A stretch of DNA of 64,000 nt from a bacterium (GTDB lineage: Bacteria; Patescibacteriota; Saccharimonadia; Saccharimonadales; UBA4665): the NCBI GenBank assembly GCA_021803105.1, contig JAJZMC010000007.1:27794-91793 (forward strand), written 5' to 3'. This document shows, piece by piece, positions 29,362-64,000 of the stretch. Below the pieces are notes generated by a model. That model was not told the origin of the DNA and searched no databases. It saw only the letters and a list, made by a program, of their open reading frames with translations. The position numbers were made by a program, and so were the translations under genes. The stretch's first letter is position 1. Each line of letters opens with the position of its first letter.

Positions 29362-29571
29362 TTCTTTCTTCTCCTTTACTTTACGTAATAAGAGAAATAA
29401 GAACATCCTAAGGAGACGATAGTTACAAGGTGGAGACGAAGTACTACCTTGTAACTAGAGTTCAAGATGTAAAATGATGGATTTACGTAAAGAGAAGAAT
29501 ATTTAAGGATAAGAATATATGCTCTATTGCTATAATTAATGTACAATATTTATAATGATTAAGTATAAACA

Positions 29572-32558: not shown

Positions 32559-32987
32559 TTATTCTTTATCTATAAATTTCACAGTATAATTCTTCCTGGA
32601 ATTAACTTTCACTAAATCGGTCACATTCTTATTTCCATCATCCTCTAACAATAACGTTCTCCCAGACATTGGTTCTTGTGGTTCAATAGCGGTTATCCGT
32701 ATATAGAAGTTATAGCTTGGTAGATTAGTTATTTCTCCTTCTTCTAGGAATGGTTTAAATAAAGGAAGTATTAACTGTTCATCTAATGGACTCCCAGTTC
32801 TAAAGACCACTACTGTTCCAACATTAGCTAGAATTATATTAACCATTCTTTGTTCTTCTTGTTGAGAAGTAGATTGTTCAACCATAATTAGATATAACTT
32901 ATACTTTCTAGCCTCAGATAACATTTGCACAAATGAAGTAGTGGCAAAGTTCTGAAACTCATCAACATAGAGAAAGAAATAAAAATC
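32559..32987 (-). pseudogene. 3' remnant of a second VirD4/TraD-like ATPase gene (starts at the Walker B region)
   Basis: Hand translation from 32987 gives DFYFFLYVDEFQNFATTSFVQMLSEARKYKLYLIMVEQSTSQQEEQRMVNIILANVGTVVVFRTGSP...LLLEDDGN.... This is colinear with PFYLYVDEFQNFATISFVQLLSEARKYKLFLTMAEQSTAQQEEKRLVDIMLANVGTVICFRSGSP...VLLEDNGS of the 864-aa protein. No N-terminal two-thirds is present. Confidence 0.8.
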
Positions 32988-34838: not shown

Positions 34839-35194
34839 TTGTTTTCAAGTTCCGTATATTTTAGGTGATTACCTTTAGCTTTATGGACCGGATATTTAAT
34901 TTCATTTTTAATCATTTTACTGTCTAATGCCTGCCTCAAATCTATGTCTAAGTCATTTGCTATTAATAATACCCAATACAAAACATCAGCCAGCTCATCC
35001 GCAATATCTTTTTTTTTGTTTTTTAAGTGTGCTTCTATCTCTTCATTATTCTTCCACTGAAAATGTTCTAAGAATTCAGTTGATTCTAATACGAGCGAGA
35101 TAGCCATATCTTTAGGATTATGGAATTGTTTCCAATTACGATCGTCTCGAAACTTAATTATTCTTTTAGCTAAATTTTCGAAATTGCTTTTCAT
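34835..35194 (-). CDS. MazG-like nucleoside triphosphate pyrophosphohydrolase (small all-alpha type)
   Basis: It is 119 aa. RDDRNWKQFHNPKDMAISLVLESTEFLEHFQW...ELADVLYWVLLIANDLDIDL matches the EExxE/D-bearing helices of the small MazG/YpjD/DCTPP1-like family. Confidence 0.75.
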   Translation of the reverse strand: MKSNFENLAKRIIKFRDDRNWKQFHNPKDMAISLVLESTEFLEHFQWKNNEEIEAHLKNKKKDIADELADVLYWVLLIANDLDIDLRQALDSKMIKNEIKYPVHKAKGNHLKYTELENK

Positions 35195-35448
35195 TGTTTT
35201 CCCTAAGTTGTATTTTATAAGTTTCCTGTCAATAATTATAATCCAAAATTAATATTTTTAATAAGTCTGGTCATCATTTTATTAAACTGAATTATTATCA
35301 GATAAACAAAAATATGTAACAAAATAGACGAGTATGGACTTATCAGACACACAAAATAAGCTAACTCGTCATCGTGATAACATTAATATATCAAAAAATA
35401 CTTGAAAATCAATAATTATATCAAACGTTACTTGTTTTTATCAACCGC

Positions 35449-38043
35449 TTACTTATTCTTGCTAAATTTACCCTTAGTTCTCTGATTATTTGATTTACGT
35501 TTTTTACTAGCTTGATAGTTTTTAATTGGTATATCACTAACAATTTTCTCTTCCGGCTGAACATATAATTTGGCATAACTATCTCTTGATGTCTCAACAA
35601 CTCTTCCAGCTACTTCTTCACTCCCATTATCTTCAAGTAAGACCGTCTCCCCAGACAAAGGTTCTAAGACACTAACAGCTCTCAGTCTCATATAAAAGCT
35701 ATAAGCTGGCAAGTTAGCTATATCACCTTGATCTAGTTGTGGTTTAAAGATAGGTAGTAATAGTTTTTCATCTTGTGGACTACCTGATCTAAAACAAATA
35801 ACTGTCCCAACGTTAGCTAGCATAATATCAACTAGTCTTTTTTCTTCTTGTTGAGCAGTCGATTGTTCTGCCATAGTAAGAAATAACTTATACTTTCTAG
35901 CTTCACTAAGTAATTGAACGAAACTAATTGTTGCAAAGTTTTGAAATTCATCAACATAAAGATAAAAAGGAGTCCTGCTGTCTTCTCCTAGTCTAGCTCG
36001 TCTAAGGGCAGATAACTGCAACTTAGCTAGAACACTAATACCAAGTAGAGTAGAGGTATCTTCTCCAATATGACCCTTAGCAAAGTTACAGATAAGTATC
36101 TTACTATCCTGAATAATATCATCAAAGTTAATAGTAGATTTAGCTTGTTCTAGTATTCTTCTACTAACAACTGATCTTTGGAATCTACCAAGCTTAGCAT
36201 TAACACCACTACTCATCTTTATTTTCTGGTAATCACCAGCACTATTAAATTCACCAGCCCAGAAGTCTTTTAAATCTTCATCAGTTAGTTTATCTACTAC
36301 TGATCTTCTAAACTTACTATTAGTGAGTAGCTTATAGACAGTAAATAAAGTAGCATCAGGAACAGTAAAAGCTGTATGAATAGTATTTCGAAGGAAATGT
36401 TCAATTCGATGACCACCATGATCATCCTCAGAAAATATTTTTCGAAAAACCGATATAACAGCTTCCGTGATAAAATCTTGTTCTAGTAGTAGTTCATCTT
36501 CACTTAAACCTTTTGGTTGTTCAAGCAAATTAAGTCCAATCGGATGAGCTATATCTCTTGGATTAAAGTAAATAACGTCTTTTATTCTACTCTCTGGAAT
36601 ATACTTTAGGATTGACTCGGCTAGATCACCATGAGGATCAATTACAGCCACACCTTTACCAGCTTTAATATCTGAAATAATTGCTGATTTAATCATAGTT
36701 GTTTTACCGTTACCACTACCACCTAAGATATAGACATGACGCTGTCTTTCTTCTTCTGTTAGTCCAACTAGATTATCATGATCATGGTAGTGATTTATCC
36801 CGTAGATAACATCAAAACTATCACTAGTTGATCTATTTTTAATAGCCAGTGGAACAGGTAAGACCTTAGATAATGATTTAACTACTTCATTACTATTACT
36901 ACCAAGACTTGGGAAGTGATAAATACTAGCTAACTCTTGGCTAGATAATATAGAAGAACTACTAGTTAAAATTGATGGTAATCGTCCACTATAAACATCC
37001 AGTTTATATTTCCAGGCAAAAGACTGACTAGTATTTTTTCTAATTATTATTTCCTGATAACCAGGAACATTAAATAAAGACAGAGCACTACTTAAACCTT
37101 TGATTCTTTGTTTGTAATTATCTCCAATAGCTAGGATTCTAATATCGACATAAAATAAGGGTTGATCTAATTTATCATAGATTGAAGTAATAACGTGTTT
37201 GGTAGTTGATGACAAACTTGGTGTTTTACTTGTTTTTAAGTATTTAGAATCTTTAAATATAAAGTGCAGAATAATATCTACTAATGTCACACTACTTACA
37301 AAAAGTAGTCTAATTAATCTAAATAGCCAGAAACCTTTACGTCGGTTAATACTACCGTCTTTACCAGCAAGTAGTTTTTTTCGGATCTTACTACTAGTCG
37401 AAACATCAACTGGTGAAGTAACTAGTTGCAGAGCAATGATCTCATCATCAGCTGGTGAAACCATTGATCCAGTAATAAAAGATAAGACATCATTAGTCTT
37501 AGTAGCTAGGGGATAAGCGTAGTGAGCTGACTGACAAAACTCAACTATTTGACAGTTAGAACTAGTTAAATCTCTAGGTAGATAATCTGGTATTTCTTTT
37601 ATCTGAATCTCTGGCATAAAAGATTCAAGTAACTGTTTAAACAAGAAAGAGTAGTCCTCATTTAGTCCAGCAATGAATCTAATACCATCACGTTTAGTTG
37701 ATACTAGTTCTAGTGATATAATCTTTCTTCGTCTTAGTAACTTATCTTTTAGCGAAACTTTATTAGTTAGTCCATAAATACTATTAAAAAACTTAGCTAC
37801 TTCATTAGTAGTTTTATTGTTACTATAAGGCGTCGTTAATTCTAAAAATATAACTGAGCCTTTTTTAAGATGAATGTAGTCTAGAGTATCTAATATTTTA
37901 TTAATGATACTAGCTAGTATTAATCTATATAAAATAATAAAAACAATAACAATAAAGGCAAAATTAATAAAAAAAGTCAAAAGAGAAGTACCAAAGATTT
38001 GCTGAAACAGATTGTAATGAATAACTGCTATAACTTCTAGCAT
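35449..38043 (-). CDS. VirD4/TraD(TrwB)-like type IV secretion coupling-protein-like P-loop ATPase
   Basis: It is 864 aa with N-terminal TM helices. Walker A is GGSGNGKTT, followed by AVIDPHGD, and Walker B is YLYVDEFQNF. It is colinear with the 1005-aa protein at 51812-54829. Confidence 0.7.
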   Translation of the reverse strand: MLEVIAVIHYNLFQQIFGTSLLTFFINFAFIVIVFIILYRLILASIINKILDTLDYIHLKKGSVIFLELTTPYSNNKTTNEVAKFFNSIYGLTNKVSLKDKLLRRRKIISLELVSTKRDGIRFIAGLNEDYSFLFKQLLESFMPEIQIKEIPDYLPRDLTSSNCQIVEFCQSAHYAYPLATKTNDVLSFITGSMVSPADDEIIALQLVTSPVDVSTSSKIRKKLLAGKDGSINRRKGFWLFRLIRLLFVSSVTLVDIILHFIFKDSKYLKTSKTPSLSSTTKHVITSIYDKLDQPLFYVDIRILAIGDNYKQRIKGLSSALSLFNVPGYQEIIIRKNTSQSFAWKYKLDVYSGRLPSILTSSSSILSSQELASIYHFPSLGSNSNEVVKSLSKVLPVPLAIKNRSTSDSFDVIYGINHYHDHDNLVGLTEEERQRHVYILGGSGNGKTTMIKSAIISDIKAGKGVAVIDPHGDLAESILKYIPESRIKDVIYFNPRDIAHPIGLNLLEQPKGLSEDELLLEQDFITEAVISVFRKIFSEDDHGGHRIEHFLRNTIHTAFTVPDATLFTVYKLLTNSKFRRSVVDKLTDEDLKDFWAGEFNSAGDYQKIKMSSGVNAKLGRFQRSVVSRRILEQAKSTINFDDIIQDSKILICNFAKGHIGEDTSTLLGISVLAKLQLSALRRARLGEDSRTPFYLYVDEFQNFATISFVQLLSEARKYKLFLTMAEQSTAQQEEKRLVDIMLANVGTVICFRSGSPQDEKLLLPIFKPQLDQGDIANLPAYSFYMRLRAVSVLEPLSGETVLLEDNGSEEVAGRVVETSRDSYAKLYVQPEEKIVSDIPIKNYQASKKRKSNNQRTKGKFSKNK

Positions 38044-38946: not shown

Positions 38947-40408
38947 TGTTGCTCGCCAATAGAAATGTCCGGATTTGCGTTCAATAGAAATGTCCAGTTT
39001 TTTGGTATGATCCTATTTAAAAAATAGGAGGATTTAATGCCAGAAATAATAAGGTTATCTCAAAAAGAACTGAACCAAGTTAGTGTCATAAAACAAGTAG
39101 CTGAAGGTAAACTCAAGCAAATAGAAGCAGCTGAAAGTTTAGATATAACAGACAGACAAATAAGAAGGCTACTCAATAAATATAGAGATGAAGGTAATAA
39201 AAGTTTTGCTAATAAATTAAGAGGCAGACCTAGTAATCACCAACTGGATAAGGGTTTTAAAGATAAAGTAATTAAGTTAGTTAAAAACAAATACCCAGAC
39301 TTTGGTCCAACCTTTGCAGCCGAAAAACTTAAGGAATTGGACGGTATTAGTATATCTGTATCTACTTTAAGACGCATAATGGTAAATAATGACGTTTGGA
39401 GAGAAAAAAGGCGTAAGAAACCTATTCACAGAACCAGGAGGCCTAGGCGTTCATGCTACGGAGATATGGAACAATTTGACGGCTCAAGCCATGACTGGTT
39501 TGAGGGTAGATATAACCATGGTGAATATACTACATTACTAGCTAGTATTGACGATGCTACGTCTATAGTTAATGCTTGGTTTAGTGACTATGAAGGGACT
39601 GTGCCTGTCATGAAGTTTTGGTGGGGGTATTTTGAGAAATATGGTAAACCTCACAGTATTTATCTAGATCGTCACAGCACATACAAAGTTAACTCTAAAA
39701 ATGCACTAGATAATGACAGCATCGTATCTGAATTTACTAGAGCCATGAAAGAATTAGGCGTACAGGTTATTAATGCAAATAGTCCTCAGGCTAAAGGTAG
39801 AATAGAAAGATTATTTGGAACCCTGCAAGACAGATTAGTAAAAGAGCTCCGCCTCGCAGGTATTAATAATCCTAATGATGCCAATAAATTTTTGCAAGCT
39901 TATTTACCTAGGTTTAATGCCAGGTTTAACGTTGAGGCTACCAGTAGCACAGATACTCACGTTATGTTATCTAAGCAGTACGATCTTAACTCAATCCTGT
40001 CTGTTCAGTCTGTACGCATTGTTAGTCGTGACTTTGTGGTTAGCTTTAAGAACCATTGGTATCAACTATCTAAAGATCAGCCTACTACAGTTTATCCTAA
40101 TAGTAAGGTAATCATTGAAGAGAGGTTAAATGGTAATTTATTGATACGTCTCAATAGCAAGTATCTAAACTACACTAAGCTAGACATTAAACCACGGAAA
40201 CCTAAAGTACTAGCCCCAGTTTTAGCCCCTAATCCTACTAAAAGACCTTATAAGCCATCAGCTACTCATCCGTGGAGAAGTATTAGGTTATTACCCTACA
40301 ATATTAGTAATAGACCGAATCAAACACCACCATCAAAGAAAATTACTTAAAAACGAATCCGGACATTTCTAAAAGTTTAAATCCGGACATTTCTACTGAA
40401 TTTCAACA
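38947..40408 (+). mobile_element. insertion sequence (rve/DDE transposase, TGT termini; IS481-like or ISNCY-like), copy 1
   Basis: The imperfect terminal inverted repeats both start with TGTTG. Each end carries two copies of the subterminal motif (A/T)AGAAATGTCC(G/A)G. These sit at 38959-38975 and 38984-38998 on the left, with the mirrored copies at 40357-40372 and 40381-40396. It has a single transposase ORF. No target-site duplication is visible. Confidence 0.8.
39037..40350 (+). CDS. IS transposase (N-terminal HTH + integrase-core DDE domain)
   Basis: It is 437 aa and preceded by AGGAGG. The HTH reads ITDRQIRRLLNKYR. Catalytic-core-like segments are MEQFDGSSHDW, IYLDRHSTYK and ANSPQAKGRIERLFGTLQDRLVKELR. 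By eye it is about 65-70% identical to the ORF at 45312-46637. Confidence 0.9.
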   Translation: MPEIIRLSQKELNQVSVIKQVAEGKLKQIEAAESLDITDRQIRRLLNKYRDEGNKSFANKLRGRPSNHQLDKGFKDKVIKLVKNKYPDFGPTFAAEKLKELDGISISVSTLRRIMVNNDVWREKRRKKPIHRTRRPRRSCYGDMEQFDGSSHDWFEGRYNHGEYTTLLASIDDATSIVNAWFSDYEGTVPVMKFWWGYFEKYGKPHSIYLDRHSTYKVNSKNALDNDSIVSEFTRAMKELGVQVINANSPQAKGRIERLFGTLQDRLVKELRLAGINNPNDANKFLQAYLPRFNARFNVEATSSTDTHVMLSKQYDLNSILSVQSVRIVSRDFVVSFKNHWYQLSKDQPTTVYPNSKVIIEERLNGNLLIRLNSKYLNYTKLDIKPRKPKVLAPVLAPNPTKRPYKPSATHPWRSIRLLPYNISNRPNQTPPSKKIT

Positions 40409-45249: not shown

Positions 45250-46727
45250 TGTCACCGCAAAGTTAAAATGTCCGCTTTTCTGCACAATAGAAATGTCCGC
45301 TTTTAGTTTATTTAAGTTATTTTTTTAGATAATGGTTTATGTTTAGGATTACTAGAAATATTATATGGAAGTAGAGTGAATTTACGCCATGGATGATTAG
45401 AACTTGGTGTAGTGTAGGTTCGTGGTTTTTTTAGGTTAGGATTACTTGTTAAGGCAATTGGTGGTTTTTCAGTTATAACAGGTTTAGTAGTTAACTTAAC
45501 ATAGGTTAAGTAATAGTTACTTAGTCTTATATAAATTGTATTATCTAATCGTTCTTCGATTGTTACTTGAGCTTTTGGTAATACTAATGTTGGTTGTACT
45601 TTTGTTAGTTGTAGCCACTGATTCTTAAAACGGATAGTGAAATCTTCATTGATGTATCGTTTTGTTTGAACTGATAAAATAGCTATTAAATTGTCCCTGG
45701 TAGTGACTGGACGATGAATGTCAATATCAGATCGTGGAGTTACAGAAAATCGAATATTAAAAGCTGGTAGAAATTTATCCTGGAGAAATATATTGGCTTC
45801 TTTTACATCATTAATATTAGCTAATCTTAACTCTTTAACTAAACGATCTTGTAAGGTACCAAATAGATTCTCTATTCTTCCTTTAGCCTGAGGGCTATTG
45901 GCATGAATAACTTCAACATTAACCTCTTTCATAGCTCGTTCAAATTGAGTAATCATAGCATCGTCATCAAGAGCATTTTTATCATTAACTTTATAGGTAC
46001 TATGACGATCTAAATAGATAGTGATTGGTTTACCATAAATCTTAAAGTAATCTCGCCAGAAGATCATAACTGGTTTAGTTCCTTCATAGTCTAAGAACCT
46101 AGCATAAATAATATTATTAGCATCATCTCTACTAGCCAGTAGTGTTGCCCAGGCTCTATTAGGTAATCTACCTTCAAACCAATCATGATGACATCCATCA
46201 AATTGTTCCATGTCTCCATAACAAGCTCTCCGTTCTCGACGCATACGATGAATTGGTTTACGTTTTTTATGTTGCCAGATACCTTCTTTAATCATTAGAT
46301 TACGGAGTGTTTCATGGTTAATATTAAGGTTATCTCTTTCAGCTAATTTCTCAGCAGCAAAAGTTGGCCCAAAATCTGGATATTTGGTTTTAACCAATTC
46401 AATTACTTGGTCTTTAATTGTTTGTGATAAACGATTATGACTAGGATTACCTCTTGCTTTATGAGCTAGTCTAGCGGTACCTTCAGCTCTGTATTTAACT
46501 AACATACGTCGGACTTGACGATCAGTTAAACCTAGACTTAAAGCGGCATCTTTTTGAGTTATTGTTTTATTAATAATTCGTTGCAACATGGTTGCTCGAT
46601 TAAGTTCTTTGGAACTTATTGTATGTATATGGTTCACTTAGATTGTCCTATCTTTTAGTTGTTTCTGTAACTAAGGATAGGACATTTTAACTTTGCGCAA
46701 ACCGGACATTTTAACTTTGCTTTCACA
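45250..46727 (-). mobile_element. insertion sequence, copy 2 (same type as copy 1, diverged), flanked by a perfect 16-bp direct repeat
   Basis: The ends are TGTCACCGCAAAGTTAAAATGTCCG... (45250->) and the reverse complement TGTGAAAGCAAAGTTAAAATGTCCGG... (46727<-). Each end has two AAATGTCC subterminal motifs. TAAAAAACTGATGTGG occurs at 45234-45249 and again at 46728-46743. Confidence 0.88.
45312..46637 (-). CDS. IS transposase (HTH + integrase-core DDE domain)
   Basis: It is 441 aa and colinear with the 437-aa transposase (MEQFDGCHHDW, IYLDRHSTYK, ANSPQAKGRIENLFGTLQDRLVKELR). Confidence 0.9.
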   Translation of the reverse strand: MNHIHTISSKELNRATMLQRIINKTITQKDAALSLGLTDRQVRRMLVKYRAEGTARLAHKARGNPSHNRLSQTIKDQVIELVKTKYPDFGPTFAAEKLAERDNLNINHETLRNLMIKEGIWQHKKRKPIHRMRRERRACYGDMEQFDGCHHDWFEGRLPNRAWATLLASRDDANNIIYARFLDYEGTKPVMIFWRDYFKIYGKPITIYLDRHSTYKVNDKNALDDDAMITQFERAMKEVNVEVIHANSPQAKGRIENLFGTLQDRLVKELRLANINDVKEANIFLQDKFLPAFNIRFSVTPRSDIDIHRPVTTRDNLIAILSVQTKRYINEDFTIRFKNQWLQLTKVQPTLVLPKAQVTIEERLDNTIYIRLSNYYLTYVKLTTKPVITEKPPIALTSNPNLKKPRTYTTPSSNHPWRKFTLLPYNISSNPKHKPLSKKIT

Positions 46728-47977: not shown

Positions 47978-48679
47978 ATGTGGCAAAAAACAAAACATGG
48001 TTTATATCGTCAATTTAATTTTAAAGATTTTAATAGTGCTTTAGATTTTATTAATCAATTAGGCATTATAGCTAATAAGTTTAATCATTATCCTAGGTTT
48101 GAAAATGAATGGAACGTTGTACAGGTTTGGTTAATTACACACGAAGAAAAAAATAATATTAGTCAGATTGATGAAGATATAGCTAAAGCAATCGATTTAA
48201 TTGTCGAAAACAAGAAACAAGATCTAAATATTAAAGCAGATATTACTATTAAAGACCATAATATTAATAAAGAGGTTAAATTATTTGCTGATGGTGGATC
48301 AAGGGGTAATCCAGGACCTTCTGCGAGTGGATTCGTTATCTTAAAAAATGATAGCGAAGAAGTGATAGTAGATAAAGGTGTTTATTTAGGTATAACAACT
48401 AATAATCAAGCTGAATATACCGCTTTAAAACTTGGTCTAGAAGAGTGTTATAAACTTCAATGTCAAACTGTGCATGTTTTTATGGATAGTTTACTTGTTA
48501 TCAATCAGATGAAAGGAATATATAAAATTAAAAATCGTGATTTATGGCCGATTCATAATGCTATTTTAGGGCTAGTTAATAAATTTAATCATGTTTACTT
48601 TCAGCATGTTCCTAGAGAGTTTAATAAATTAGCAGATGCAGCAGTTAATAGAGCATTGGACGAGAACATAAATCATTAA
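47978..48679 (+). CDS. fusion protein: pterin-4a-carbinolamine dehydratase (PCD/DCoH)-like domain + RNase H (type 1) domain
   Basis: The N-terminal ~90 aa read FNFKDFNSALDFINQLGIIANKFNHYPRFENEWNVVQVWLITHE, the PCD pattern with HYP in place of HHP. The C-terminal ~135 aa read LFADGGSRGNPGPSASGFVI...TNNQAEYTALKLGLEE...VFMDSLLVINQ...REFNKLADAAVN, which carries the RNase H D-E-D-D catalytic pattern. Confidence 0.75.
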   Translation: MWQKTKHGLYRQFNFKDFNSALDFINQLGIIANKFNHYPRFENEWNVVQVWLITHEEKNNISQIDEDIAKAIDLIVENKKQDLNIKADITIKDHNINKEVKLFADGGSRGNPGPSASGFVILKNDSEEVIVDKGVYLGITTNNQAEYTALKLGLEECYKLQCQTVHVFMDSLLVINQMKGIYKIKNRDLWPIHNAILGLVNKFNHVYFQHVPREFNKLADAAVNRALDENINH

Positions 48680-48707
48680 ATTAAGAAAGTATTGTATAAT
48701 AAACATT

Positions 48708-49064
48708 GCCAGATTATTGACCGATCGCGTACTTTTAAATACGAGGAAAGTCCGGGCAGCAAAGAGAGTGATAGTCGTTAACGACGACCAGATGTGAATC
48801 TAGGGAAAGTGCCACAGAGACAATACTATCGTTATTTTGACGGTAAAGGTGAAAAGAGCGGTGTAAAAGACCGTAGTTTATATTGGTGACATTATAAAGA
48901 GGTAAACCCTATCAGCTGCAAGGAGATAAGTTTTAAGTTTTTACTTTAGTTTCTCGCTAAACTTATCGATTTATCCGCTTGAATTTATGAGTAATTATAA
49001 ATCTAGATAGATGATCGGTAATCTTATTTTAAGATTACAGAACCCGGCTTATAGATAATCTGGC
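48708..49064 (+). ncRNA. rnpB: RNase P RNA (bacterial type A)
   Basis: The universally conserved P4 strands GAGGAAAGTCCGGGC (~48744) and ACAGAACCCGGCTTA (~49038) are present. The terminal P1 pairs GCCAGATTAT (48708-48717) with ATAATCTGGC (49055-49064). AGGGAAAGTGCCACAGA is also conserved. Confidence 0.92.
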
Positions 49065-49069
49065 TATTA

Positions 49070-55428: not shown

Positions 55429-57087
55429 TTAGATTATGTTATTTTGAAGCGCTAAGTCAGATTCTTTGGCGAGTAATCTAGATCGAGCAAAGAAGTAACC
55501 GATAACTGTTACTATTAATGCGGCAATGAAGATATCGTTTCCTGGACCAGTATTAACAAGTGTTGTTGAAGTTGTGGTCGTCTCAATTGTTTTAATAATT
55601 GTAGCAGGTAAATGTATGATTATAGTGTTACCGTATACATTAGTCATTTCGAGGTTGTAATAGCCTGGATCTGAAGATGAAGTAGGAGTTTGAGGAATTG
55701 GGCTCATCACTTTAACGGCTACTTTTTCGGTTGCTGTGGAGTTAGGAGCAATATTAATAGCTGGCCATGTTATTTGATTAGAACTATTAATTGTTCCACC
55801 GTATTTATTTACGATCGTTGAGTAATCAAGAACATCACTTAGATTATCACTAAAAACGTAGTTTTTAATTGGTGCTAGACCGGTGTTATCAGCATAAAGA
55901 GTATAAATAATTTCATTATTAGGTTGAGCAGTTGTTCCATTAGCATTAGCGATGTTTTGAGTAATATTAGCAGCGGTTTTATATACTTTAATACAAGCTA
56001 TACTGTCTTGACTATTAATACTGGCTTGGCAGGGCTTACAATTAGGACTTGAAGCGGTTAAGCTAGCATTATACTTACAGGTTGGCGGTGTAGGTGGTGG
56101 TGAATAAGGTGTAGTCGGTGGTTGACTTGGTGTGGCAACTGTCATACAAACTTGGTTACTGTTTAGAGGTGTTGTTTCGTTAGAGCTTATAGTTGCTATA
56201 TTACAGATTTGAGTACCAGGAGTGACGTTAGGGTTAATTTTAACTCTTAGGTCTATATAATAATTAGTGGCTCCAGCGGGTAAAGTGTTATATACCCATT
56301 GTGCTTGATTAGTTTGAAAATTATTTGGTACAACATTAGCTCCTCCAGTTCCAAACCAAGTGTATGTTGTATTATTTGGTAATGGATCAGATATAACTAC
56401 GTTTTTAGCTTCACCACCAGTATTCGAAAAAATTAAACGATAGGATAAAGTTTCGTTTGGACTAACAATACTACCATTAACTGGAAAGCCTGGAGAGGTG
56501 GTTTTACTGATTGTTAAATTTGGTGCTTGAGGTAAACCAATCGATACTAAGTTACCACAAGTGTAGAGTAAAAAGTATGTTGTGCCATTAGAGGCTGTTA
56601 ATTTAATTGCTTGATAATTTGATGAACCAGCTGTATCCCAGGCCCATAAATATCTAAAATAATAAATGGTTCCAGCTACAATAACAGGTGTTTCTCCGGT
56701 TAGATTATAAGGTAATCTTCCCATTGAAAATAGTTGCTTATTGTATGAGTCAGAGTTAAGAGTTATCGTTGAACCTGAGGCTATATCTTGACAGGTAATG
56801 TTATAGTTAGCCAGAATTGTACCGTAATTTTCAATGTTATTGTTACAAAGATTAACAGCTTGTGAGATAGAAGAAAAGCCTCCATTTATTAAATCATTTG
56901 GTGAAGCTGCTATTGTTGGTTGAGGAGGACTTATAAAGGCAAAGAATTGAACAAAAAAAGCTAATATAATAAAAATAAAACTAATTCGTCTAATACTGGA
57001 CTCTTGTCTCATTCGTTTACTGTAAAATGATATCTGACTGGTGATGTTTGGATTATATGGTAGTAGTGATAGTAATTTTTTTAACAT
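55429..57087 (-). CDS. secreted or cell-surface protein with DUF11-type repeats, a Pro-rich/Cys-rich linker and an LVNTG + TM + basic C-terminal sorting-like signal
   Basis: An N-terminal signal-anchor is present (ISFIFIILAFFVQFFAFI). Two segments resemble the conserved repeat domain (LSYRLIFSNTGGEAKNVVISDPLPNNTTY and IIYTLYADNTGLAPIKNYVFSDNLSD). The linker reads PSQPPTTPYSPPPTPPTC. The C-terminus reads TTLVNTGPGNDIFIAALIVTVIGYFFARSR. Confidence 0.65.
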   Translation of the reverse strand: MLKKLLSLLPYNPNITSQISFYSKRMRQESSIRRISFIFIILAFFVQFFAFISPPQPTIAASPNDLINGGFSSISQAVNLCNNNIENYGTILANYNITCQDIASGSTITLNSDSYNKQLFSMGRLPYNLTGETPVIVAGTIYYFRYLWAWDTAGSSNYQAIKLTASNGTTYFLLYTCGNLVSIGLPQAPNLTISKTTSPGFPVNGSIVSPNETLSYRLIFSNTGGEAKNVVISDPLPNNTTYTWFGTGGANVVPNNFQTNQAQWVYNTLPAGATNYYIDLRVKINPNVTPGTQICNIATISSNETTPLNSNQVCMTVATPSQPPTTPYSPPPTPPTCKYNASLTASSPNCKPCQASINSQDSIACIKVYKTAANITQNIANANGTTAQPNNEIIYTLYADNTGLAPIKNYVFSDNLSDVLDYSTIVNKYGGTINSSNQITWPAINIAPNSTATEKVAVKVMSPIPQTPTSSSDPGYYNLEMTNVYGNTIIIHLPATIIKTIETTTTSTTLVNTGPGNDIFIAALIVTVIGYFFARSRLLAKESDLALQNNII

Positions 57088-57797
57088 AATTTTATGTGTT
57101 TCTTTAAATTTAATGTTTATTCATTAGTTTAATGTAAACATAAAGTTACTATTTATACAATAGAGGTTAATGGTATTAAGATTTAAATTACTATTTTATG
57201 TTTATGGTTAAGATGTTAGTTGTTTATAATAGTATATAGTAAAAATAACAGCAGATGAATAATTAAAAACAGGCGAGGCATTTTATTAAGAACATAAGTT
57301 TATATGATTGAATACACTAATATGTTGTAAATTAAGACAGTATTTTTAATCAATAAGTGTTGTTATATTGTCTATATATTAATATTTTTATGATTTTTTG
57401 ATAAAACTGGAGCTATTTTTTCCCAAAATCGTAGTATTATTCACACCTGTGTATAACTGTTATTAATAACATTTAATTAATTATTTAATGTTAATTAAAT
57501 AAAATATTAATTAATAATTTAAGTTATTTCTACAATGAAGTAATTTATTACTTCTTATGTAGTAATAAATAATATAAATTAGTTAATCTAATATTGAATA
57601 AATAATAAGTTATTTAAGTTAATATTGTTGTTCTAATATAAACAAACATTAGCTTTATTAATTTATTTAATTAAACTGACTAATTTATTAAGTCTTTTTA
57701 TCTTGTTAAAAGGGTAGTAATAATACTAAAATGGATTAAGTTATTATTCACTTAAAGTTAATAAATTAATAAATACTAAAATATAAACAATAAACAA

Positions 57798-60700
57798 ATG
57801 CCACCTAACAACGATTACTCTGGTCTTAAAACTCTAGAAGACTCTCCTAATATCTCTTCACTTAATCCCATAACTAATTCTAACTACACTAAACCTAAAT
57901 GGTACTCACTAGCCTATAGCTCTCATAAGAAACTATTAATATCTCTAATAGTAATATTAGTTATATTTCTATTATCTGGTTCTTATGCCATCTACAGACT
58001 AACAGCTAATACTAAAGCTAATACACCAGTATCTATTAAAAACAATATTAATCCTACACTACCTCAATCTACTAATGGACTACTACCACCTAAACAACAA
58101 GTCTTAGTAGTTAACTCTAACTTAAAGGTTAATGCTAATACTGCTCTTCAAGGTACTCTAAATGTTACAGGACTAGTTACCTTACAAGGTAATGTAACCA
58201 TTACTGGTACTCTAAATGTTTTAAAGAATGGTACCTTTAAAGGTAACAATACTTTCTCAGGTACTAATACCTTTACTAATAACTCTACCTTTTCTGGACC
58301 AACTAACTTTACTAATACTAACAATACTTTCTCAGGACTAACTATCTCCAACAATGGACTAGTAGGCGGTATATTAAAAGTAGCTAGTGGTAGTCTAGTA
58401 CTAGGTAATCCAGGAACTACTCTAGGTTCCTTATCTTTTTCTCAAACTAACTCAACTAATTTATCTAGCTTAACTATTTCTAATCCTTTATCTCTTGGTA
58501 AAGTAAACTATGTCTTACCATCAATCAGTGGTAATTCTTCTGATACTATTTGTTTAGCTAATCTAAGAAACTGTTCAGCTGTTGGTACTTCAGGTGGTGA
58601 TTTAACAGGCAACTACCCAAGTCCAACTATCGCTAAACTCCAAGGAACTACTCTAACTCTATCTACTCCATCAACTGGACAAGTTCTAGCCTACAATGGT
58701 ACTGCCTATATTAATACATTAATTACTAACACTAACCTAACAGCTGGTAGTTATACTAACATCACTGGAGTAGGAGTCTTATCTTCTGGTTCTATTGCTT
58801 CTGGCTTTGGTCCTATCTCTACTACTAACAACATATCTACTACTGCTACTATTAATGCTGGAACACTTAGTGTTAGTGGTAACTCCACACTCTCAGGAAC
58901 ATTAACTGTTAGTGGTAACTCACTACTAAGTAGTAACTTAAACGTTAATGGTACCTCCACTCTTTCTGGTCCACTAATAGCTAACTCTACTACATTATTT
59001 AAAGACTTAACTAACTCTACTACTGCCTTTCAAATACAGAATGCTAATTCAGCTAACATACTAACTGCTGATACTACAACTAATACTATTAACCTAAACG
59101 GTAACCTAAACCTTAACCAAGTATCGGCTCCTACTACTGCTCCAACAGTTGCTATTAATACTACTGCTGGTAACCTTAACTCTACTTATTACTATGTCTA
59201 TGCTTATATAACACCAAGTGGTATTACTAATTATTCTCCAGTCTCTTCTGGTGTAGCTCCAGTCTCTCAACAAGTTAATGTTACAGTCTCTGCTTCATCT
59301 AACAACCTAGTAACTGGTATTAATATCTATCGGACTATAGCTGGAGCTACTAACTCTGGACCATTCTATTTAGTTAACTCCACTCCACTATCTAACGTAA
59401 GCCAAACATATGTAGACAATATAGCTGATAGTTCATTAGGAATAGCTAGTAGTGATATTAATAATAGTGCTAACTTTAAAGTTAATGGTAGCTCAGTTCT
59501 AATTATTGATCCTAACAACTACAATACTGGAGTAGGACTTAATGTGTTAAAGAGTAATAGTACGGGCTTATCTAACTCAGCTTTTGGCTTTAATGCTCTT
59601 GAATCTAACATTACCGGTTCTGACAATACTGCTATAGGAGCTTTAGCTCTTCAGTCTAATACTACCGGTTATTCAAACACCGCTATCGGACTTAACGCCT
59701 TACAACTTAACACCACTGGCTACCAAAACACTGCTGTTGGCTTTCAATCTCTTCAGGACAATACCACTGGTGTTAATAATGCTAGCTTAGGCTATCAGGC
59801 TCTTCAAGCCAATACTACCGGTTATTCAAACACCGCTATCGGACTTAACGCCTTACAACTTAACACCACTGGCTACCAAAACACTGCTGTTGGCTTTCAA
59901 TCTCTTCAGGACAATACTACTGGTTATTCAAACACCGCTGTCGGACTTAATACCTTACAACTTAACACCACTGGCTATCTAAATACAGCTCTAGGTTTAG
60001 GTGCTTTACAGTCTAATACTACCGGTACTTATAACACGGCTTTAGGAGCAGGTGCTCTTCAATATAATACAACTAGTGGCAGTAATACTGCCTTTGGAGC
60101 TCAAGCTCTTCAAGAAAATACCACCGGTTATAATAACACTAGTGTTGGTATGAATGCCTTACAACTTAACACCACAGGTTATCTAAACACATCTCTAGGT
60201 CTTGCTTCGTTACAATCTAACACCACTGGCTATACTAACACGGCTTCTGGAGCTTTAGCTCTTCAAGGCAATACCACTGGTTACCAGAATACCGCTCTAG
60301 GCTATAGTGCTTTATATTCTAATACCACTGGTGGAACAAACACTGCTCTTGGTCAAAATGCTCTCTATGCTAATACTTCTGGTAACTCAAACATAGCTAT
60401 TGGTTTTGGAGCAGGTTATACCAACACTGGAGCTAATGCCAATACCACAGGTTCTAATAACACATTCCTAGGATATTATTCAGGACCAGGAACTACTACT
60501 CAACTTAACAATGCTACAGCTATTGGTTCTAATGCAGTTGTAGATACTTCTAATTCTCTAGTTCTAGGATCAATAAGTGGAGTTAATGGAGCTACTGCTA
60601 GTACTAATGTTGGTATAGGAACAACTTCACCGAACGCTGCACTAGAAGTTACTACTGGTGGAGGTGGTGTAAATAATAATGGGATTTATGTTTATGATAG

Positions 60701-63700
60701 TCCAAATGTCGGTTATTCTACTTTGAGTGTCTATAATAATTGGCTTGATGGTCACGGTGGCAATAATTTTCAAATTCAAAATGCATCAGGTTCATTATTT
60801 ACGGTTAATAATAATGGTTATGTTGGTATAGGAACAGCTAGTCCACAAGATAATTTAAGTATATTTGGAGTACAAAATTATAATAGTGGTTTAGAGTTAA
60901 ATGGTAATAGTAGTGGTGGTGTAGGTATGTCAATTGAAAATACATCTTCTGGGGGTCATAGTTATGCAATTTTATCCGGAGGCGCTGCTAATGGAGTTGG
61001 TGTAGGTGCGTTTGGTATATATGATGAAACTACAGGTGCTTATCGTCTGACAATAAATCCTAGTGGTAATGTTGGTATAGGAACAACTAGTCCAACTCAA
61101 ACTTTAGATGTAGTAGGAAACACTCTACTTCAATCAGCTACTAACTCTACTACTGCCTTTCAAGTACAGAATGCTAGTGGAGCTACTATATTAAATACTG
61201 ACTCTAATCCACTAACTGCTAATAATGTTGGTAGTACTAATTGGACTACTACTTCTTCATTACCAAAAGCTTTATATGATGGTAACTCTATTACATATAA
61301 CGGCTATATATATGAAATAGCAGGATTTAATAGTTCTTCCGTTTATTATGCTCCAATTAACCTAGACGGTTCAGTTAGCTCTTGGACTACTACTACCTCA
61401 TTACCTCAACCACTAGAAGGAGCTAGAGTAGTTACTTACAATGGTTATGTCTATGTGATGGGTGGATATAACGATAGTTCAGGAACTGTTCAGTCCACTG
61501 TCTACTATGCTCAAATCAATCTAGACGGTTCAATAGGTACTTGGTTATCTGCTACTAACTTACCACAAGCCTTATGGCAACCAACTGCTGTTGTTTACAA
61601 TAACTATATATATGTTATAGGTGGTAATAACACTACTGCTTCTACTACTGATCAATCCACTGTCTACTATGCCCCAATTAACTCTGATGGCTCTGTCGGC
61701 ACTTGGACTACTACCACCGCACTACCACAGACATTATACGGTGCTACTTCTGTTATCTATAATGGTTACATTTATGAAATAGGCGGTACAAATAGTACGG
61801 TTGTTCAATCCACTGTCTACTATGCTCCCATTAACTCTGATGGCTCCGTTGGTACTTGGACTTCTACTACTGCCTTACCTCAAGCACTTCAAGCTGATAA
61901 CTCCGTTGTCTATGATGGTTATATTTATGAACTTGGTGGTTACAACGGTTCTTATCAGTCTTCTATTATCTATTACGCTTTAATAAATTCTAATGGTTCA
62001 ATTGGTAATTGGAGCACTAGTCCTATTACTCTTCCACAAGCTTTATATGCTGCATCAGCTTCCGTCTATAATGGCTATGTCTATGAAATGACTGGTTTAA
62101 ATAGTAGTGGTGTTAGTCAATCTGCTGTTTACTACACTCAACTACTGAATGGTAGCTCATCAATAGAGCAGGGTAGTCTTACTCTTAATGCTGGTACTAC
62201 TATAACTGGACCAACAACTCTACAGAATACTACTAACTCTAATACGGCCTTACAAGTTAACAACAGCAATGGTGGTTCTATATTAAATGTTAATTCTAAC
62301 CCTCAAACATATACTAATGCTGGGATAACGAATTGGAATAGTACGAGTGGATTACCACAAGGAATAAATAGTTCTACCTCTGTGTCGTATAACGGCTATA
62401 TATATGAATTAGGAGGATACACTAATAGTTTGGGTTATCAATCCACTGTCTACTACGCCCCTCTAAACTCCAATGGCTCCGTGGGCACCGGGATCTACAC
62501 CACCGCCTTACCCCAGGCATTAGATGGTACAGCCTCAGATGTATATAATGGATATGTATATATATTGGGAGGTCAAAATTCATCTAATACTATTCAATCC
62601 ACTGTCTACTACGCCCCTCTAAACTCCAATGGCTCCGTCGGCACCTGGATCTCCACCACCGCCTTACCCCAGGCATTAAGTAGGTCTACATCCTTGGTAT
62701 ATAACGGCTATATATATGAATTTGGAGGTGATAATAGTGCTTATCAATCCACTGTCTACTACGCCCCCTTAAATTCCAATGGCTCCGTCGGCACCTGGAT
62801 CTCCACCACCGCCTTACCGCAATCTATAGACTTTATTTCTTCAGATGTATATAATGGATATGTATATATATTGGGAGGTCAAAATTCAAGTGGTGCTTAT
62901 CAATCCACTGTCTACTACGCCCCTCTAAACTCCAATGGCTCCGTCGGCACCTGGATCTCCACCACCGCTTTACCTCAAACACTTAGGGGGGCGACGTCGA
63001 GTATTTATAATGGTTTTATCTATGAAGTTGGTGGAGATAACGGATATACTTACAATTCCACCGTCTACTACGCCCCTCTAAAATCCAATGGTTCAGTCGG
63101 CACTTGGAATAGCACTGTCTACTTACCTGAAACAGTATCTTATGCAGCGTCGAGTATTTATAACGGATATATATATGAGCTAGGAGGAGGCTTATCTAAC
63201 GGATCAATAGTTCCTAATGTCTATTACGCTCAATTTTTAACAGGTAATTCAACTCTGCAGGGTAGTCTAACTTTTAATGCTAGTCTAAATGTATCAGGAC
63301 CAACAGTCTTACAAAATGCTATTGATTCAGTTAATGCCTTTCAAATAAACAATAGCACTGGTGGTTCTATTTTGTCTGTTAACTCTACACCAGTAACGAC
63401 TACTACTGCCGGAACAACGGCTTGGAATACAACAACTAACTTACCACAAGCGTTAAATAGCCCCACTTCAGTAACATACAACGGTTATATATATGAATTA
63501 GGCGGACAGGAGACATCTGGAACTATAATCAGTACAGTTGAATATGCTCCTCTAAATTCCAACGGCTCAGTTGGTGCCTGGACCTCCACCACCGCTCTAC
63601 CCCAAGCATTGTGGCGCGCTACTTCTGTTGTCTACAACGGTTATATTTATGAAATAGGAGGGGATGATGCTGGTATTTATCAATCCACCGTCTACTACGC

Positions 63701-64000
63701 TCCCTTAAACTCCAACGGCTCAGTCGGTACCTGGACCTCCACCACCGCCTTACCCCAAGCATTAGGTATTGCTACCTCCGTAGTCTACAACGGCTATGTT
63801 TATGAAATAGGAGGATATAACGGTACTGCTATTCAATCCACCGTCTACTACGCCCCCTTAAACTCCAACGGCTCAGTCGGTACCTGGACCTCCACCACCG
63901 CGTTGCCGCAGATTACATTTGTTGCCACTTCAGTAGTATATAATGATTATGTCTATGAGATAGGGGGTAGCAACGGTAGTGTTAATTATTCATCGGTCTA
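57798..64000 (+). CDS. giant membrane-anchored surface protein (>2,067 aa, 3' end outside the window): beta-helix/tail-fibre-like stalk plus at least 3 tandem six-bladed Kelch-type propellers
   Basis: It is absent from the ORF track because there is no stop in the window. Hand translation from ATG 57798 gives MPPNNDYSGLKTLED...KKLLISLIVILVIFLLSGSYAIY (the TM helix). This continues as NTALQGTLNVTGLVTLQGNVTITGTLNV... and then DLTGNYPSPTIAKLQGTTLTL.... I checked the same frame at 62400 (IYELGGYTNSLGYQSTVYYA) and at 63951 (VYEIGGSNGSVNYSSV). The only ORFs listed in this 6.2 kb are three short ones, either out of frame or antisense. Confidence 0.85.
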   Translation, partial: MPPNNDYSGLKTLEDSPNISSLNPITNSNYTKPKWYSLAYSSHKKLLISLIVILVIFLLSGSYAIYRLTANTKANTPVSIKNNINPTLPQSTNGLLPPKQQVLVVNSNLKVNANTALQGTLNVTGLVTLQGNVTITGTLNVLKNGTFKGNNTFSGTNTFTNNSTFSGPTNFTNTNNTFSGLTISNNGLVGGILKVASGSLVLGNPGTTLGSLSFSQTNSTNLSSLTISNPLSLGKVNYVLPSISGNSSDTICLANLRNCSAVGTSGGDLTGNYPSPTIAKLQGTTLTLSTPSTGQVLAYNGTAYINTLITNTNLTAGSYTNITGVGVLSSGSIASGFGPISTTNNISTTATINAGTLSVSGNSTLSGTLTVSGNSLLSSNLNVNGTSTLSGPLIANSTTLFKDLTNSTTAFQIQNANSANILTADTTTNTINLNGNLNLNQVSAPTTAPTVAINTTAGNLNSTYYYVYAYITPSGITNYSPVSSGVAPVSQQVNVTVSASSNNLVTGINIYRTIAGATNSGPFYLVNSTPLSNVSQTYVDNIADSSLGIASSDINNSANFKVNGSSVLIIDPNNYNTGVGLNVLKSNSTGLSNSAFGFNALESNITGSDNTAIGALALQSNTTGYSNTAIGLNALQLNTTGYQNTAVGFQSLQDNTTGVNNASLGYQALQANTTGYSNTAIGLNALQLNTTGYQNTAVGFQSLQDNTTGYSNTAVGLNTLQLNTTGYLNTALGLGALQSNTTGTYNTALGAGALQYNTTSGSNTAFGAQALQENTTGYNNTSVGMNALQLNTTGYLNTSLGLASLQSNTTGYTNTASGALALQGNTTGYQNTALGYSALYSNTTGGTNTALGQNALYANTSGNSNIAIGFGAGYTNTGANANTTGSNNTFLGYYSGPGTTTQLNNATAIGSNAVVDTSNSLVLGSISGVNGATASTNVGIGTTSPNAALEVTTGGGGVNNNGIYVYDSPNVGYSTLSVYNNWLDGHGGNNFQIQNASGSLFTVNNNGYVGIGTASPQDNLSIFGVQNYNSGLELNGNSSGGVGMSIENTSSGGHSYAILSGGAANGVGVGAFGIYDETTGAYRLTINPSGNVGIGTTSPTQTLDVVGNTLLQSATNSTTAFQVQNASGATILNTDSNPLTANNVGSTNWTTTSSLPKALYDGNSITYNGYIYEIAGFNSSSVYYAPINLDGSVSSWTTTTSLPQPLEGARVVTYNGYVYVMGGYNDSSGTVQSTVYYAQINLDGSIGTWLSATNLPQALWQPTAVVYNNYIYVIGGNNTTASTTDQSTVYYAPINSDGSVGTWTTTTALPQTLYGATSVIYNGYIYEIGGTNSTVVQSTVYYAPINSDGSVGTWTSTTALPQALQADNSVVYDGYIYELGGYNGSYQSSIIYYALINSNGSIGNWSTSPITLPQALYAASASVYNGYVYEMTGLNSSGVSQSAVYYTQLLNGSSSIEQGSLTLNAGTTITGPTTLQNTTNSNTALQVNNSNGGSILNVNSNPQTYTNAGITNWNSTSGLPQGINSSTSVSYNGYIYELGGYTNSLGYQSTVYYAPLNSNGSVGTGIYTTALPQALDGTASDVYNGYVYILGGQNSSNTIQSTVYYAPLNSNGSVGTWISTTALPQALSRSTSLVYNGYIYEFGGDNSAYQSTVYYAPLNSNGSVGTWISTTALPQSIDFISSDVYNGYVYILGGQNSSGAYQSTVYYAPLNSNGSVGTWISTTALPQTLRGATSSIYNGFIYEVGGDNGYTYNSTVYYAPLKSNGSVGTWNSTVYLPETVSYAASSIYNGYIYELGGGLSNGSIVPNVYYAQFLTGNSTLQGSLTFNASLNVSGPTVLQNAIDSVNAFQINNSTGGSILSVNSTPVTTTTAGTTAWNTTTNLPQALNSPTSVTYNGYIYELGGQETSGTIISTVEYAPLNSNGSVGAWTSTTALPQALWRATSVVYNGYIYEIGGDDAGIYQSTVYYAPLNSNGSVGTWTSTTALPQALGIATSVVYNGYVYEIGGYNGTAIQSTVYYAPLNSNGSVGTWTSTTALPQITFVATSVVYNDYVYEIGGSNGSVNYSSV
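59571..60480 (+). repeat. in-frame 51-nt (17-aa) tandem repeats, about 17 units, consensus (Y)xNTA(I/L)GxxALQxNTTG
   Basis: Example units: SDNTAIGALALQSNTTG, YSNTAIGLNALQLNTTG, YQNTAVGFQSLQDNTTG, VNNASLGYQALQANTTG and so on. The array contains a perfect 107-bp duplication (59658-59764 = 59811-59917), offset by 153 bp, which is 3 units. Confidence 0.9.
61240..64000 (+). repeat. in-frame ~150-156-nt Kelch-like blade repeats arranged as six-blade modules (61240-62150, 62331-63235, 63421->64000)
   Basis: The blade consensus is W(T/I)(S/T)TTALPQAL...S(V)VYNGY(I/V)YE(I/L)GG.N....QSTVYYAP(L/I)NS(N/D)GSVGT. The modules are separated by a linker motif, (T/V)LQN....S..A(L/F)Q(V/I)NNS.GGSIL.VNS, which also appears at ~59020 and ~61140. 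Confidence 0.88.

Follow-up and report, generated by a model that had tools for sequence, protein, structure and literature searches.

Repetitive, recently amplified β-propellers are known from bacteria, Kelch propellers among them; their blades are near-identical, and nucleotides that are specific to one propeller are common to all of its blades (Pereira & Lupas 2022, PMC9218822; Afanasieva et al. 2019, PMC6805158). Here we describe a giant gene for a presumed surface protein with tandem Kelch propellers, located in a stretch of 64,000 nt (in the following called the window; positions 27,794 to 91,793 of contig JAJZMC010000007.1, assembly GCA_021803105.1) from a bacterium of the order Saccharimonadales within the Patescibacteriota. 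Like the amplified propellers, the giant gene encodes bacterial propellers with near-identical blade sequence that are hard to assemble. In the amplified propellers, however, the blade is near-identical as a whole, which has been read as the amplification of a single blade, whereas in the giant gene homogenisation affects only ~55% of the blade, namely strands C and D, and the flanks are saturated with synonymous differences. Blades that are near-identical over their entire length, including the synonymous sites, were not found in this gene. The homogenised segment, called the core below, moreover differs from its surroundings in codon composition, and no such island is described for the amplified propellers (PMC9218822, PMC6805158). 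In the giant gene, an island of C-ending codons coincides with concerted evolution of a sub-blade segment.

Long proteins of the surface type with tandem domains that are similar at the DNA level, and with differences in repeat number, have been described as periscope proteins (Whelan et al. 2021, PMC8201768). The giant protein shares the length and the similar tandem domains; a difference in repeat number exists between two assemblies, but it may be an artefact. The repeats of periscope proteins form a rod of independent domains, whereas those of the giant protein form closed six-bladed propellers, and a change in copy number would be constrained by propeller closure. DNA near-identity over the whole repeat, as in periscope genes, was not observed; it is limited to the 84-nt core within the repeat, and the nucleotide identity of the flanks is ~0.65–0.75. 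The six-bladed Kelch fold with its GG doublet and its conserved Tyr and Trp is shared with Keap1, KLHL2/3/12/20 and SAKe. Unlike the eukaryotic Kelch proteins, the giant protein combines five tandem propellers in one presumably membrane-anchored bacterial protein of 3,344 amino acids (aa), and it has no BTB or BACK domain.

With regard to codon composition, the giant gene can be compared to GC-biased gene conversion (gBGC) in bacteria (PMC4450053), with which it shares a raised G+C content at third codon positions (GC3) in recombining sequence. That effect is seen on a gene-by-gene scale, whereas the change described here covers 84 nt within a gene and concerns C-ending codons only. Synonymous G+C is raised in the cores, but G- and C-ending codons do not rise together. 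For Y-chromosome ampliconic genes, it has been proposed that selection becomes more effective through gene conversion among the copies (PMC8794474, which cites Rozen 2003 and Connallon & Clark 2010), as we propose for the cores of the giant gene. The work on ampliconic genes deals with eukaryotes and with amino-acid fitness; its extension to synonymous codons in intragenic repeats of a bacterium is one that we infer. The hallmarks of concerted evolution are present in the giant gene, namely a synonymous divergence of the converted tract far below that of equally constrained neighbouring sequence, array-specific substitutions and a conflict between genealogies.

Homogenised cores in the Kelch blades

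The giant gene starts with an ATG at 57798 on the plus strand, and frame analysis found it open to the end of the window (57798–64000). The full product (P0142, an NCBI protein from a 101-kb contig that was reached by cluster look-up) has 3,344 aa, and its residues 1–2067 equal the window translation without differences. Because of this length, the gene end is expected ~3.8 kb past the window. The continuation was taken from the ENA contig L004, which reproduces 62649–64000, and thereby 63029–64000, at 100% identity. The protein contains five Kelch modules of 6, 6, 6, 6 and 5 blades, 29 altogether, with linkers of ~55 residues between the modules. Module 1 spans 61233–62132 and module 2 spans 62328–63236; module 3 begins at 63420 and is truncated by the window end at 64000 (all on the plus strand).

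Module 2 holds the cores that the original prediction had reported from the sequence. Their starts at 62439, 62595, 62745 and 62901 proved exact and the substitutions few. The copy in blade 8 (62595–62678) serves as the reference 84-mer. It encodes QSTVYYAPLNSNGSVGTWISTTALPQAL and consists of A18 C36 G12 T18, hence 48/84 G+C (57%), as had been counted. The surroundings are indeed poorer, with G+C values per 1 kb of 0.21–0.42 across the window and ~0.31 outside the giant gene, close to the one-third that had been estimated. Compared to the reference, 3 mismatches are found in blade 7 (62439–62522), 8 in blade 9 (62745–62828), mostly in the last 10 nt, and 6 in blade 10 (62901–62984), all copies lying on the plus strand; those of blades 9 and 10 are 100% identical in L004. 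As the differences in blades 9 and 10 are concentrated in the last ~10 nt, these two copies have a uniform tract of ~72–75 nt. The core of blade 11 (63054–63137, plus strand) has diverged, with 21 mismatches and a G+C of 0.45. The three mismatches of blade 7 are all transversions (GTC to GTG, TGG to GGG and TCC to TAC) and replace the otherwise invariant blade Trp by Gly; they may be real or sequencing errors.

The cores of module 2 follow each other at distances of 156, 150 and 156 nt, and TRF reports a 156-nt array over 62436–62974. A two-blade higher-order repeat of ~306 nt, also part of the original prediction, was recovered as well: in an ungapped self-comparison of module 2 (62380–63160), the lag of 306 gave the best identity (0.64 vs 0.56 at lag 156), and two exact repeats recur at a distance of 306 nt, one of 69 nt (62594/62900) that is shared by the cores of blades 8 and 10 and one of 48 nt (62535/62841). 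The 48-nt repeat is a flank sequence (62535–62582, plus strand, with its partner at 62841–62888) and defines the two-blade unit; blades 8 and 10 are the only blades that share such an extra flank tract. Module 3 possesses its own homogenised version of the core at 63681 and 63834, for which the original prediction had given 63681 and 63833, next to a partly diverged copy at 63528. The cores of module 1 (61491, 61653 and 61806) have diverged, are weakly C-biased and differ at 16–30 nt. For these, the same peptide in AT-rich codons had been proposed. They do contain fewer C-ending codons, but their peptide is related to that of module 2 and not identical (P-I-N-S-D vs P-L-N-S-N).

When mapped onto the structural model of module 2, the core covers the strands C (TVYYAP) and D (TWxST), the hairpin between them (LNSNGSVG) and the first part of the D-A loop. 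What varies within the blade is the remainder of this loop, the B-C loop and the two strands A and B (..SVV-YNGYIYE.GG). According to the codon alignment, the AT-rich segment at 62523–62594 accordingly holds the D-A loop, strand A, strand B (YNGYVYILGG) and the B-C loop, and equivalent variable segments are located at 62679–62744 and 62829–62900 (plus strand). In the window and L004 taken together, 17–18 blades of modules 2–5 have a core whose synonymous sites are conserved and which bears small signatures of its module.

The motif GGTGGTGG occurs 8 times in the window, with 0.3 occurrences expected, and is found on the minus strand of six cores (62653, 62803, 62959, 63586, 63739 and 63892). 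We set it aside as a candidate Chi-like motif. It is simply the complement of ACC-ACC (Thr-Thr), and it resembles the Chi sequence of some other bacteria, which may not be that of the host.

Homogenisation is confined to the cores

Synonymous difference was calculated as the fraction of differing codons at positions where the amino acid is the same. Within modules, the cores show a synonymous difference of 0.27 overall, with 0.15 in module 5, 0.23 in module 2, 0.26 in module 4, 0.41 in module 3 and 0.54 in module 1; between modules it is 0.37. The flanks lie at 0.44–0.51 and, where set against the cores of modules 2, 4 and 5, at 0.44–0.57, compared to 0.50 expected for saturation from the background codon usage, and even the invariant YNGYIYE.GG motif is saturated (0.46 vs 0.45 expected). 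The synonymous divergence (dS) according to Nei-Gojobori is 0.48–0.64 in the core, 1.6–2.4 in strand B and 1.2–2.7 in strand A. The corresponding ratio of nonsynonymous to synonymous divergence (dN/dS) is 1.07–1.54 in the B-C loop and 0.4 in the D-A loop.

The cores resemble each other most within the same module. Permutation of the blades among modules yielded P<0.0002 for the cores, and 19 of the 23 cores have their nearest neighbour in their own module, compared to only 8 of the 23 flanks. Blade 14 of module 3, for example, has a flank that is closest to that of blade 25 in module 5. The modules carry fixed synonymous variants as signatures, ACT/AAT/TCC/GGC in module 2 vs ACC/AAC/TCA/GGT in module 3. 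Inside module 2, the exact tracts of 48 and 69 nt are arranged as a mosaic with clustered differences between them. Thus, a mosaic pattern, module-specific signatures and a conflict between the genealogies of cores and flanks are found in the same gene.

From the codon usage of the cores themselves, a synonymous difference of 0.40 is expected. We interpret the similarity within modules as identity by descent because it exceeds this expectation from shared bias and because of the permutation result. The saturated flanks exclude an amplification of whole blades, and short-tract conversion limited to the cores can yield the pattern. Together, these results support short-tract gene conversion that is confined to the cores and strongest within modules. 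Concerted evolution or gene conversion had been suggested on the basis of constant cores and variable inserts; synonymous differences, permutation, nearest neighbours and dS all agree with that suggestion. The original prediction had also seen the cores as substrates for recombination or changes in copy number; the identical cores would be the sites where blades can be gained, lost or shuffled.

An island of C-ending codons

The original prediction had called the core GC-rich, which holds for its overall composition, but the anomaly consists of C-ending codons and not of a general richness in G+C. The GC3 of the cores is ~0.7 vs 0.20 in the background. At third positions, C/(C+T) is 0.76 in the cores of modules 2–5, 0.21 in their flanks, 0.33 in the cores of module 1 and 0.18 in the background. 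The values for G/(A+G) are, in the same order, 0.14, 0.25, 0.09 and 0.19. Across modules 2–5, the C/(C+T) of the cores ranges from 0.66 to 0.88, with the highest value of 0.88 in module 5. When all five modules are considered, the synonymous difference of the cores and their C fraction are in perfect inverse rank order.

In one core, 18 of the 24 degenerate codons end with C, whereas 2.8 are expected from the codon usage of the window (z = 9.8). We scanned the other 39 open reading frames (ORFs) in segments of 28 codons; the maximum among these 13,840 background segments was 10 C-ending codons vs 13–18 in the cores of modules 2 and 3. All segments that exceed the background maximum are either Kelch cores or the two copies of an unrelated 153-nt repeat in the same gene. 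This tandem repeat (59646–59924, plus strand; 1.8 copies of 96% identity according to TRF) lies inside the region of NTAxG repeats of 17 residues. Its segments at 59658 and 59799 contain 12 C-ending codons, and its C/(C+T) is 0.40 vs 0.28 in the neighbouring repeats.

All four-fold families move to NNC, from NNT as well as from NNA (ACC 0.82, GTC 0.86, GGC 0.74, GCC 0.68, TCC 0.72). NNG codons remain at ≤0.11 in the cores, Gln is encoded by CAA (1.00) and Leu by TTA/CTA. The rise of C alone, with CAA and TTA kept, therefore argues against canonical gBGC and against a GC-rich donor. A GC-rich donor can be ruled out, as the cores retain TTA and CAA and lack NNG codons. A shift restricted to NNC is the pattern expected from a preference for codons that are read by GNN anticodons. 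The tRNAs encoded in the window are tRNA-Val(GAC), tRNA-Pro(GGG) and tRNA-Asn(GTT), hence there are GNN anticodons for the four-codon boxes of Val and Pro. A genome-wide translational optimality of NNC codons received no support because the ATP-synthase genes are without NNC preference, and the flanks, which belong to the same transcript and show no such preference either, likewise speak against simple translational selection. The coding strand of the giant gene is C-rich, contrary to the local positive GC skew.

Homologous genes in other genomes

More than 1,300 multi-propeller homologues exist, and the named ones all belong to Saccharimonadales or Patescibacteria. A literature search for Kelch proteins of Saccharibacteria turned up nothing. 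We surveyed 31 genomic loci with homologues, and 16 loci were used for the comparison of blade identity with C excess. In seven relatives of low GC content, the C/(C+T) of the core is 0.06–0.20 and equals their own background, which rules out a family-wide constraint on the core codons. Core-specific homogenisation is rare among the low-GC relatives. The two loci with the most homogenised blades among the 16, L014 and L006, are also the two whose C excess over their own genome is large (+0.28 and +0.22, respectively), with a small G excess of +0.07 and +0.09. The core G/(A+G) of L006 is 0.66 vs 0.45.

The same contrast as in the window was found in L038, a variant of 85–90% identity, with a C/(C+T) of 0.86–0.95 in the core vs 0.21–0.28 in the flank. 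An independent sample from JGI yielded L037, whose core peptide is the same and whose cores are homogenised in a version of their own. This locus is C-rich over the whole blade (C/(C+T) of 0.66 in the core and 0.64 in the flank, G/(A+G) of 0.07–0.17) and agrees with the window core in many of its C-ending codons. At L037:435–455, an in-frame TAG lies inside a blade (YNGYVY*MVGV); it may point to a pseudogene, a sequencing error or recoding. Among the candidate donors that were measured, the most C-rich one has a value of 0.73 and is a locus with 48% GC. In the JGI metagenomes, scans for a degenerate pattern of the core and for YYAPLNSNGSVGTW in codon-neutral back-translation gave no matches.

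Assembly and blade number

Short-read assemblies of the giant gene contain chimeras and differ in the number of blades, which makes blade counts unreliable without long reads. L004 has exactly one module-4 blade fewer than P0142, all other residues being identical. The additional blade of P0142 is known only as protein sequence, as a look-up of the corresponding DNA gave no record. The breakpoint falls within a 63-nt stretch of the core, equivalent to positions 65082–65145 of the window (L004:2564–2627). This difference is either a real unequal crossover between cores or, equally, a short-read collapse, L004 being a chimeric short-read contig. Its positions 1–520 represent a fold-back; at the junction, the flank sequence GGTGGAGAT and the core sequence ATCTCCACC share an inverted microhomology of 10 nt. 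Module 5 has five blades in both P0142 and L004.

L038 and L039 (ENA ERZ27237063) are variants of 78–90% identity and at the same time fold-back or mosaic chimeras. Therefore, they were not used as evidence for blade shuffling. Fold-back and mosaic contigs of this kind are typical of amplification or assembly artefacts. The Logan contigs stop upstream of the giant gene, and the three that were obtained for the neighbouring gene all end inside the intergenic region of 710 nt 5′ of it (57088–57797), which has a G+C of ~21%. In the giant gene itself, the longest exact repeat is 69 nt, below ordinary read length, and the frame is intact over 3,344 codons. Each flank is unique; each core is therefore anchored in the assembly.

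Architecture of the giant protein

The order of regions in P0142 is an N-terminal hydrophobic anchor, Asn/Thr-rich repeats, the five Kelch modules and a C-terminal region, whose ~480 residues have no Pfam match. Inspection of the translation by eye suggests a transmembrane or signal-anchor helix near the N-terminus (LLISLIVILVIFLLSGSY; 57933–57986, plus strand). Judging from its sequence, the giant protein is presumably membrane-anchored and located at the cell surface.

The Kelch families PF24681 and PF01344 matched with 113.8 bits (cut-off 50) and 83.4 bits (cut-off 20.1), respectively. The blades comprise 47–54 residues, compared to 44–56 for Kelch repeats, and they contain the GG doublet and the conserved Tyr and Trp. 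The pattern YNGYIYE.GG ... VYYAP ... GTW is present in 28 blades. For module 2, AlphaFold2 predicted a closed six-bladed propeller with a predicted local distance difference test score (pLDDT) of 95.2 and a predicted template modelling score (pTM) of 0.92. The best Foldseek matches of this model are the designed symmetric SAKe6 Kelch proteins and the Kelch domains of KLHL proteins and Keap1 (E ~1e-18, template modelling scores of 0.75–0.83). By all membership tests that we ran, this predicted structure included, the giant protein is a Kelch propeller protein.

We also considered the giant gene as the target of a diversity-generating retroelement (DGR) or of silent cassettes. Of the 39 ORFs with 150 aa or more, 29 were compared to Pfam and none encodes a DGR-type reverse transcriptase, the sole match resembling a reverse transcriptase being RVT_3, which has an RNase H fold. 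BLASTN of the giant gene against the rest of the window gave no significant second copy. This model was rejected, as neither a DGR reverse transcriptase among the ORFs scanned nor a template copy in the window was found. Rfam families had no match in the giant gene.

Genomic surroundings

The window represents a bacterial chromosome, with genes for RNase P RNA, three tRNAs, ATP synthase, cytochrome oxidase, threonyl-tRNA synthetase (ThrRS) and an AddA-like helicase-nuclease. The gene next to the giant gene (55429–57087, minus strand) encodes a DUF11/DUF7619/DUF7927 repeat protein that is probably a surface protein, too. With third-position fractions of 0.17 for C and 0.05 for G, it is rich in C and poor in G like the giant gene.

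Adjoining tRNA-Asn, an island resembling an integrative element extends over 24769–38043. It contains genes for a large serine recombinase (24915–26417, minus strand), a Replic_Relax protein (27445–28272), an NgoPII-type restriction endonuclease together with a C-5 cytosine methyltransferase (29572–31474), a Schlafen-like helicase (32988–34838, minus strand) and a TrwB-like coupling protein (35449–38043, minus strand). The cumulative GC skew has its minimum with a switch of sign at ~37000–38000, which may mark a replication origin or a switch of gene strand. Two similar transposase-like ORFs with an HTH_32 domain are located in inverted orientation at 39037–40350 (plus strand) and 45312–46637 (minus strand). 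This pair flanks tRNA-Val, ThrRS, miaA and their neighbours and may form a structure like a composite transposon. Within 47978–49067, an ORF that fuses pterin-4a-carbinolamine dehydratase and RNase H/RVT_3 domains ends 30 nt before the RNase P RNA gene (48709–49067).

Possible origin of the C-ending codon island

We lean towards an explanation that combines conversion of the sub-blade cores with a directional force favouring C-ending codons, likeliest a weak selection for NNC that is made effective by conversion. Neighbouring blades would exchange the ~84-nt segment encoding strands C and D and the hairpin, either through gene conversion of short tracts or through unequal recombination. Strands A and B and the two loops D-A and B-C would fall outside the conversion tracts and diverge to saturation. 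C-ending codons would appear only where the sequence is homogenised because the directional force would act in the converting tracts. The likeliest force would be weak selection for NNC codons read by tRNAs with GNN anticodons, too weak for single-copy genes and effective once ~20 copies exchange sequence; the main alternative force would be a base-specific repair bias in heteroduplex DNA. The AddA-like recombination helicase-nuclease in the window provides supporting context. The predictions of a selection model and of gBGC have been set out by Lassalle et al. 2015 (PMC4450053), and the codon pattern of the giant gene fits their ‘selection model’ better than gBGC.

In canonical gBGC, heteroduplex mismatches are repaired towards G:C, and the GC3 of the cores would climb against AT-biased mutation. 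This would explain why the tract of high GC3 coincides with the homogenised tract, why more homogenised modules have more C and why C-codon islands are found only in homogenised repeats. The homogenised loci L014 and L006 lie above their own genomic GC3, the core G/(A+G) of L006 is raised as well, and recombination and GC3 are positively linked across bacteria (PMC4450053). However, C alone rises in the giant gene while G/(A+G) in the cores stays below the background, the four-fold families shift to NNC with NNG codons remaining scarce, and CAA and TTA/CTA are retained, although under gBGC all GC-ending codons are predicted to increase and AU-ending codons to decrease, regardless of optimality (PMC4450053). 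The moderately homogenised cores of L023 and L027 show no gain in GC3. We therefore regard canonical gBGC as quite unlikely. Alternatively, a C-rich core might have been imported from an L037-like source, or be a relict of an ancestral state, and then have been spread by neutral conversion in the absence of any directional force. The flanks would in this case reflect a long residence in an AT-rich genome, and L037 could represent such a source with its identical core peptide, its C-rich blade and the many shared C-ending codons. The unbiased low-GC relatives, which speak against a family-wide constraint, fit as well, and decay from an all-C ancestor is calculated to yield a between-module difference (2pq) of ~0.37, equal to that observed. 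But neutral conversion does not, on average, slow amelioration, and still the cores have kept their high C fraction; the difference between modules is already near the value for independent codon draws; and module 5 and L038 exceed every donor measured. A truly GC-rich donor is excluded by the codons retained, the second, unrelated repeat of the giant gene is a C island too, and both JGI metagenome scans remained without a match. On balance, import or relict status appears unlikely, if less so than gBGC.

Two further explanations do without conversion or without a biological cause. If direct purifying selection acted on the nucleotide or RNA sequence of the cores, for instance through folding kinetics or mRNA structure, the blades would be convergent. 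The similarity between modules is nearly all explained by shared codon bias, and the pattern is periodic with the blade and matches strands C and D, as this explanation would have it. Yet the module-specific synonymous variants and the permutation result require identity by descent within modules. The pattern is also missing from module 1 of the same protein and from the homologous cores of the seven other low-GC genomes, the equally conserved YNGYIYE.GG is under no such constraint, and the region lacks an Rfam match, making selection without conversion very unlikely. The near-identity could finally result from consensus smoothing, collapse or expansion during short-read assembly. Other assemblies are clearly faulty, as illustrated by the 520-nt fold-back of L004, the mosaics of L038 and L039, the blade that L004 lacks relative to P0142 and the Logan contigs that stop before the giant gene, and Pereira & Lupas advise caution in the assembly of near-identical blades (PMC9218822). 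Such an artefact is hardly credible, however, given that 62649–64000 is identical in L004, that the longest exact repeat is shorter than the reads, that the frame is open over its full length and that unique flanks anchor the cores. Modules 1–4 have six blades each, module 2 is modelled as a closed propeller with a pLDDT of 95, and homogenised, C-rich cores are present independently in L037 and L038.

Several observations weigh against conversion combined with a directional force. The correlation across modules has n = 5, and its two variables, synonymous difference and C fraction, are in part coupled mathematically, as a strong bias by itself lowers the differences. Between modules, the synonymous difference of 0.37 is close to the expected 0.40 and is therefore mostly due to shared codon bias, so conversion is demonstrated within modules only. 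The missing G enrichment is based on few independent sites per core (~4 two-fold R sites and 16 four-fold sites). Over the 16 loci, blade identity and C excess are not significantly rank-correlated (rho 0.32, P 0.22), and L014 and L006 were singled out post hoc; L023 and L027 have moderately homogenised cores and yet no C excess. The C fractions at third positions in the ATP-synthase α and β genes are 0.05–0.08, and the window contains no genes for ribosomal proteins. The surface location of the protein and the binding role of its loops are both deduced.

Implications

The processes underlying this pattern are familiar; distinctive are the limitation of homogenisation to a sub-blade segment and the pyrimidine-specific island of C-ending codons. 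In the question of how recombination and GC3 are connected, the rise of C alone, with A-ending two-fold codons kept, leans towards selection. We tentatively suggest, as a possibility that we consider rather doubtful so far, that conversion among ~20 cores amplifies very weak synonymous selection and so creates ‘codon-optimised islands’ only in homogenised sequence, here in a reduced, AT-rich and probably slow-growing Patescibacterium. If true, converting and non-converting segments encoding the same amino acids in one transcript would constitute a natural within-gene experiment that separates selection from gBGC.

If other Kelch domains can serve as a guide, the ligand-binding face would be formed by the variable loops D-A and B-C, which would correspond to the ligand-face loops of eukaryotic Kelch domains. 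Each blade would then be a constant scaffold with diversified loops. The bacterial group to which the host belongs lives attached to other cells. The giant gene indicates that concerted evolution can act on part of a structural repeat, with the outer strands frozen and the rest of the blade, including the probable ligand loops, free to vary.

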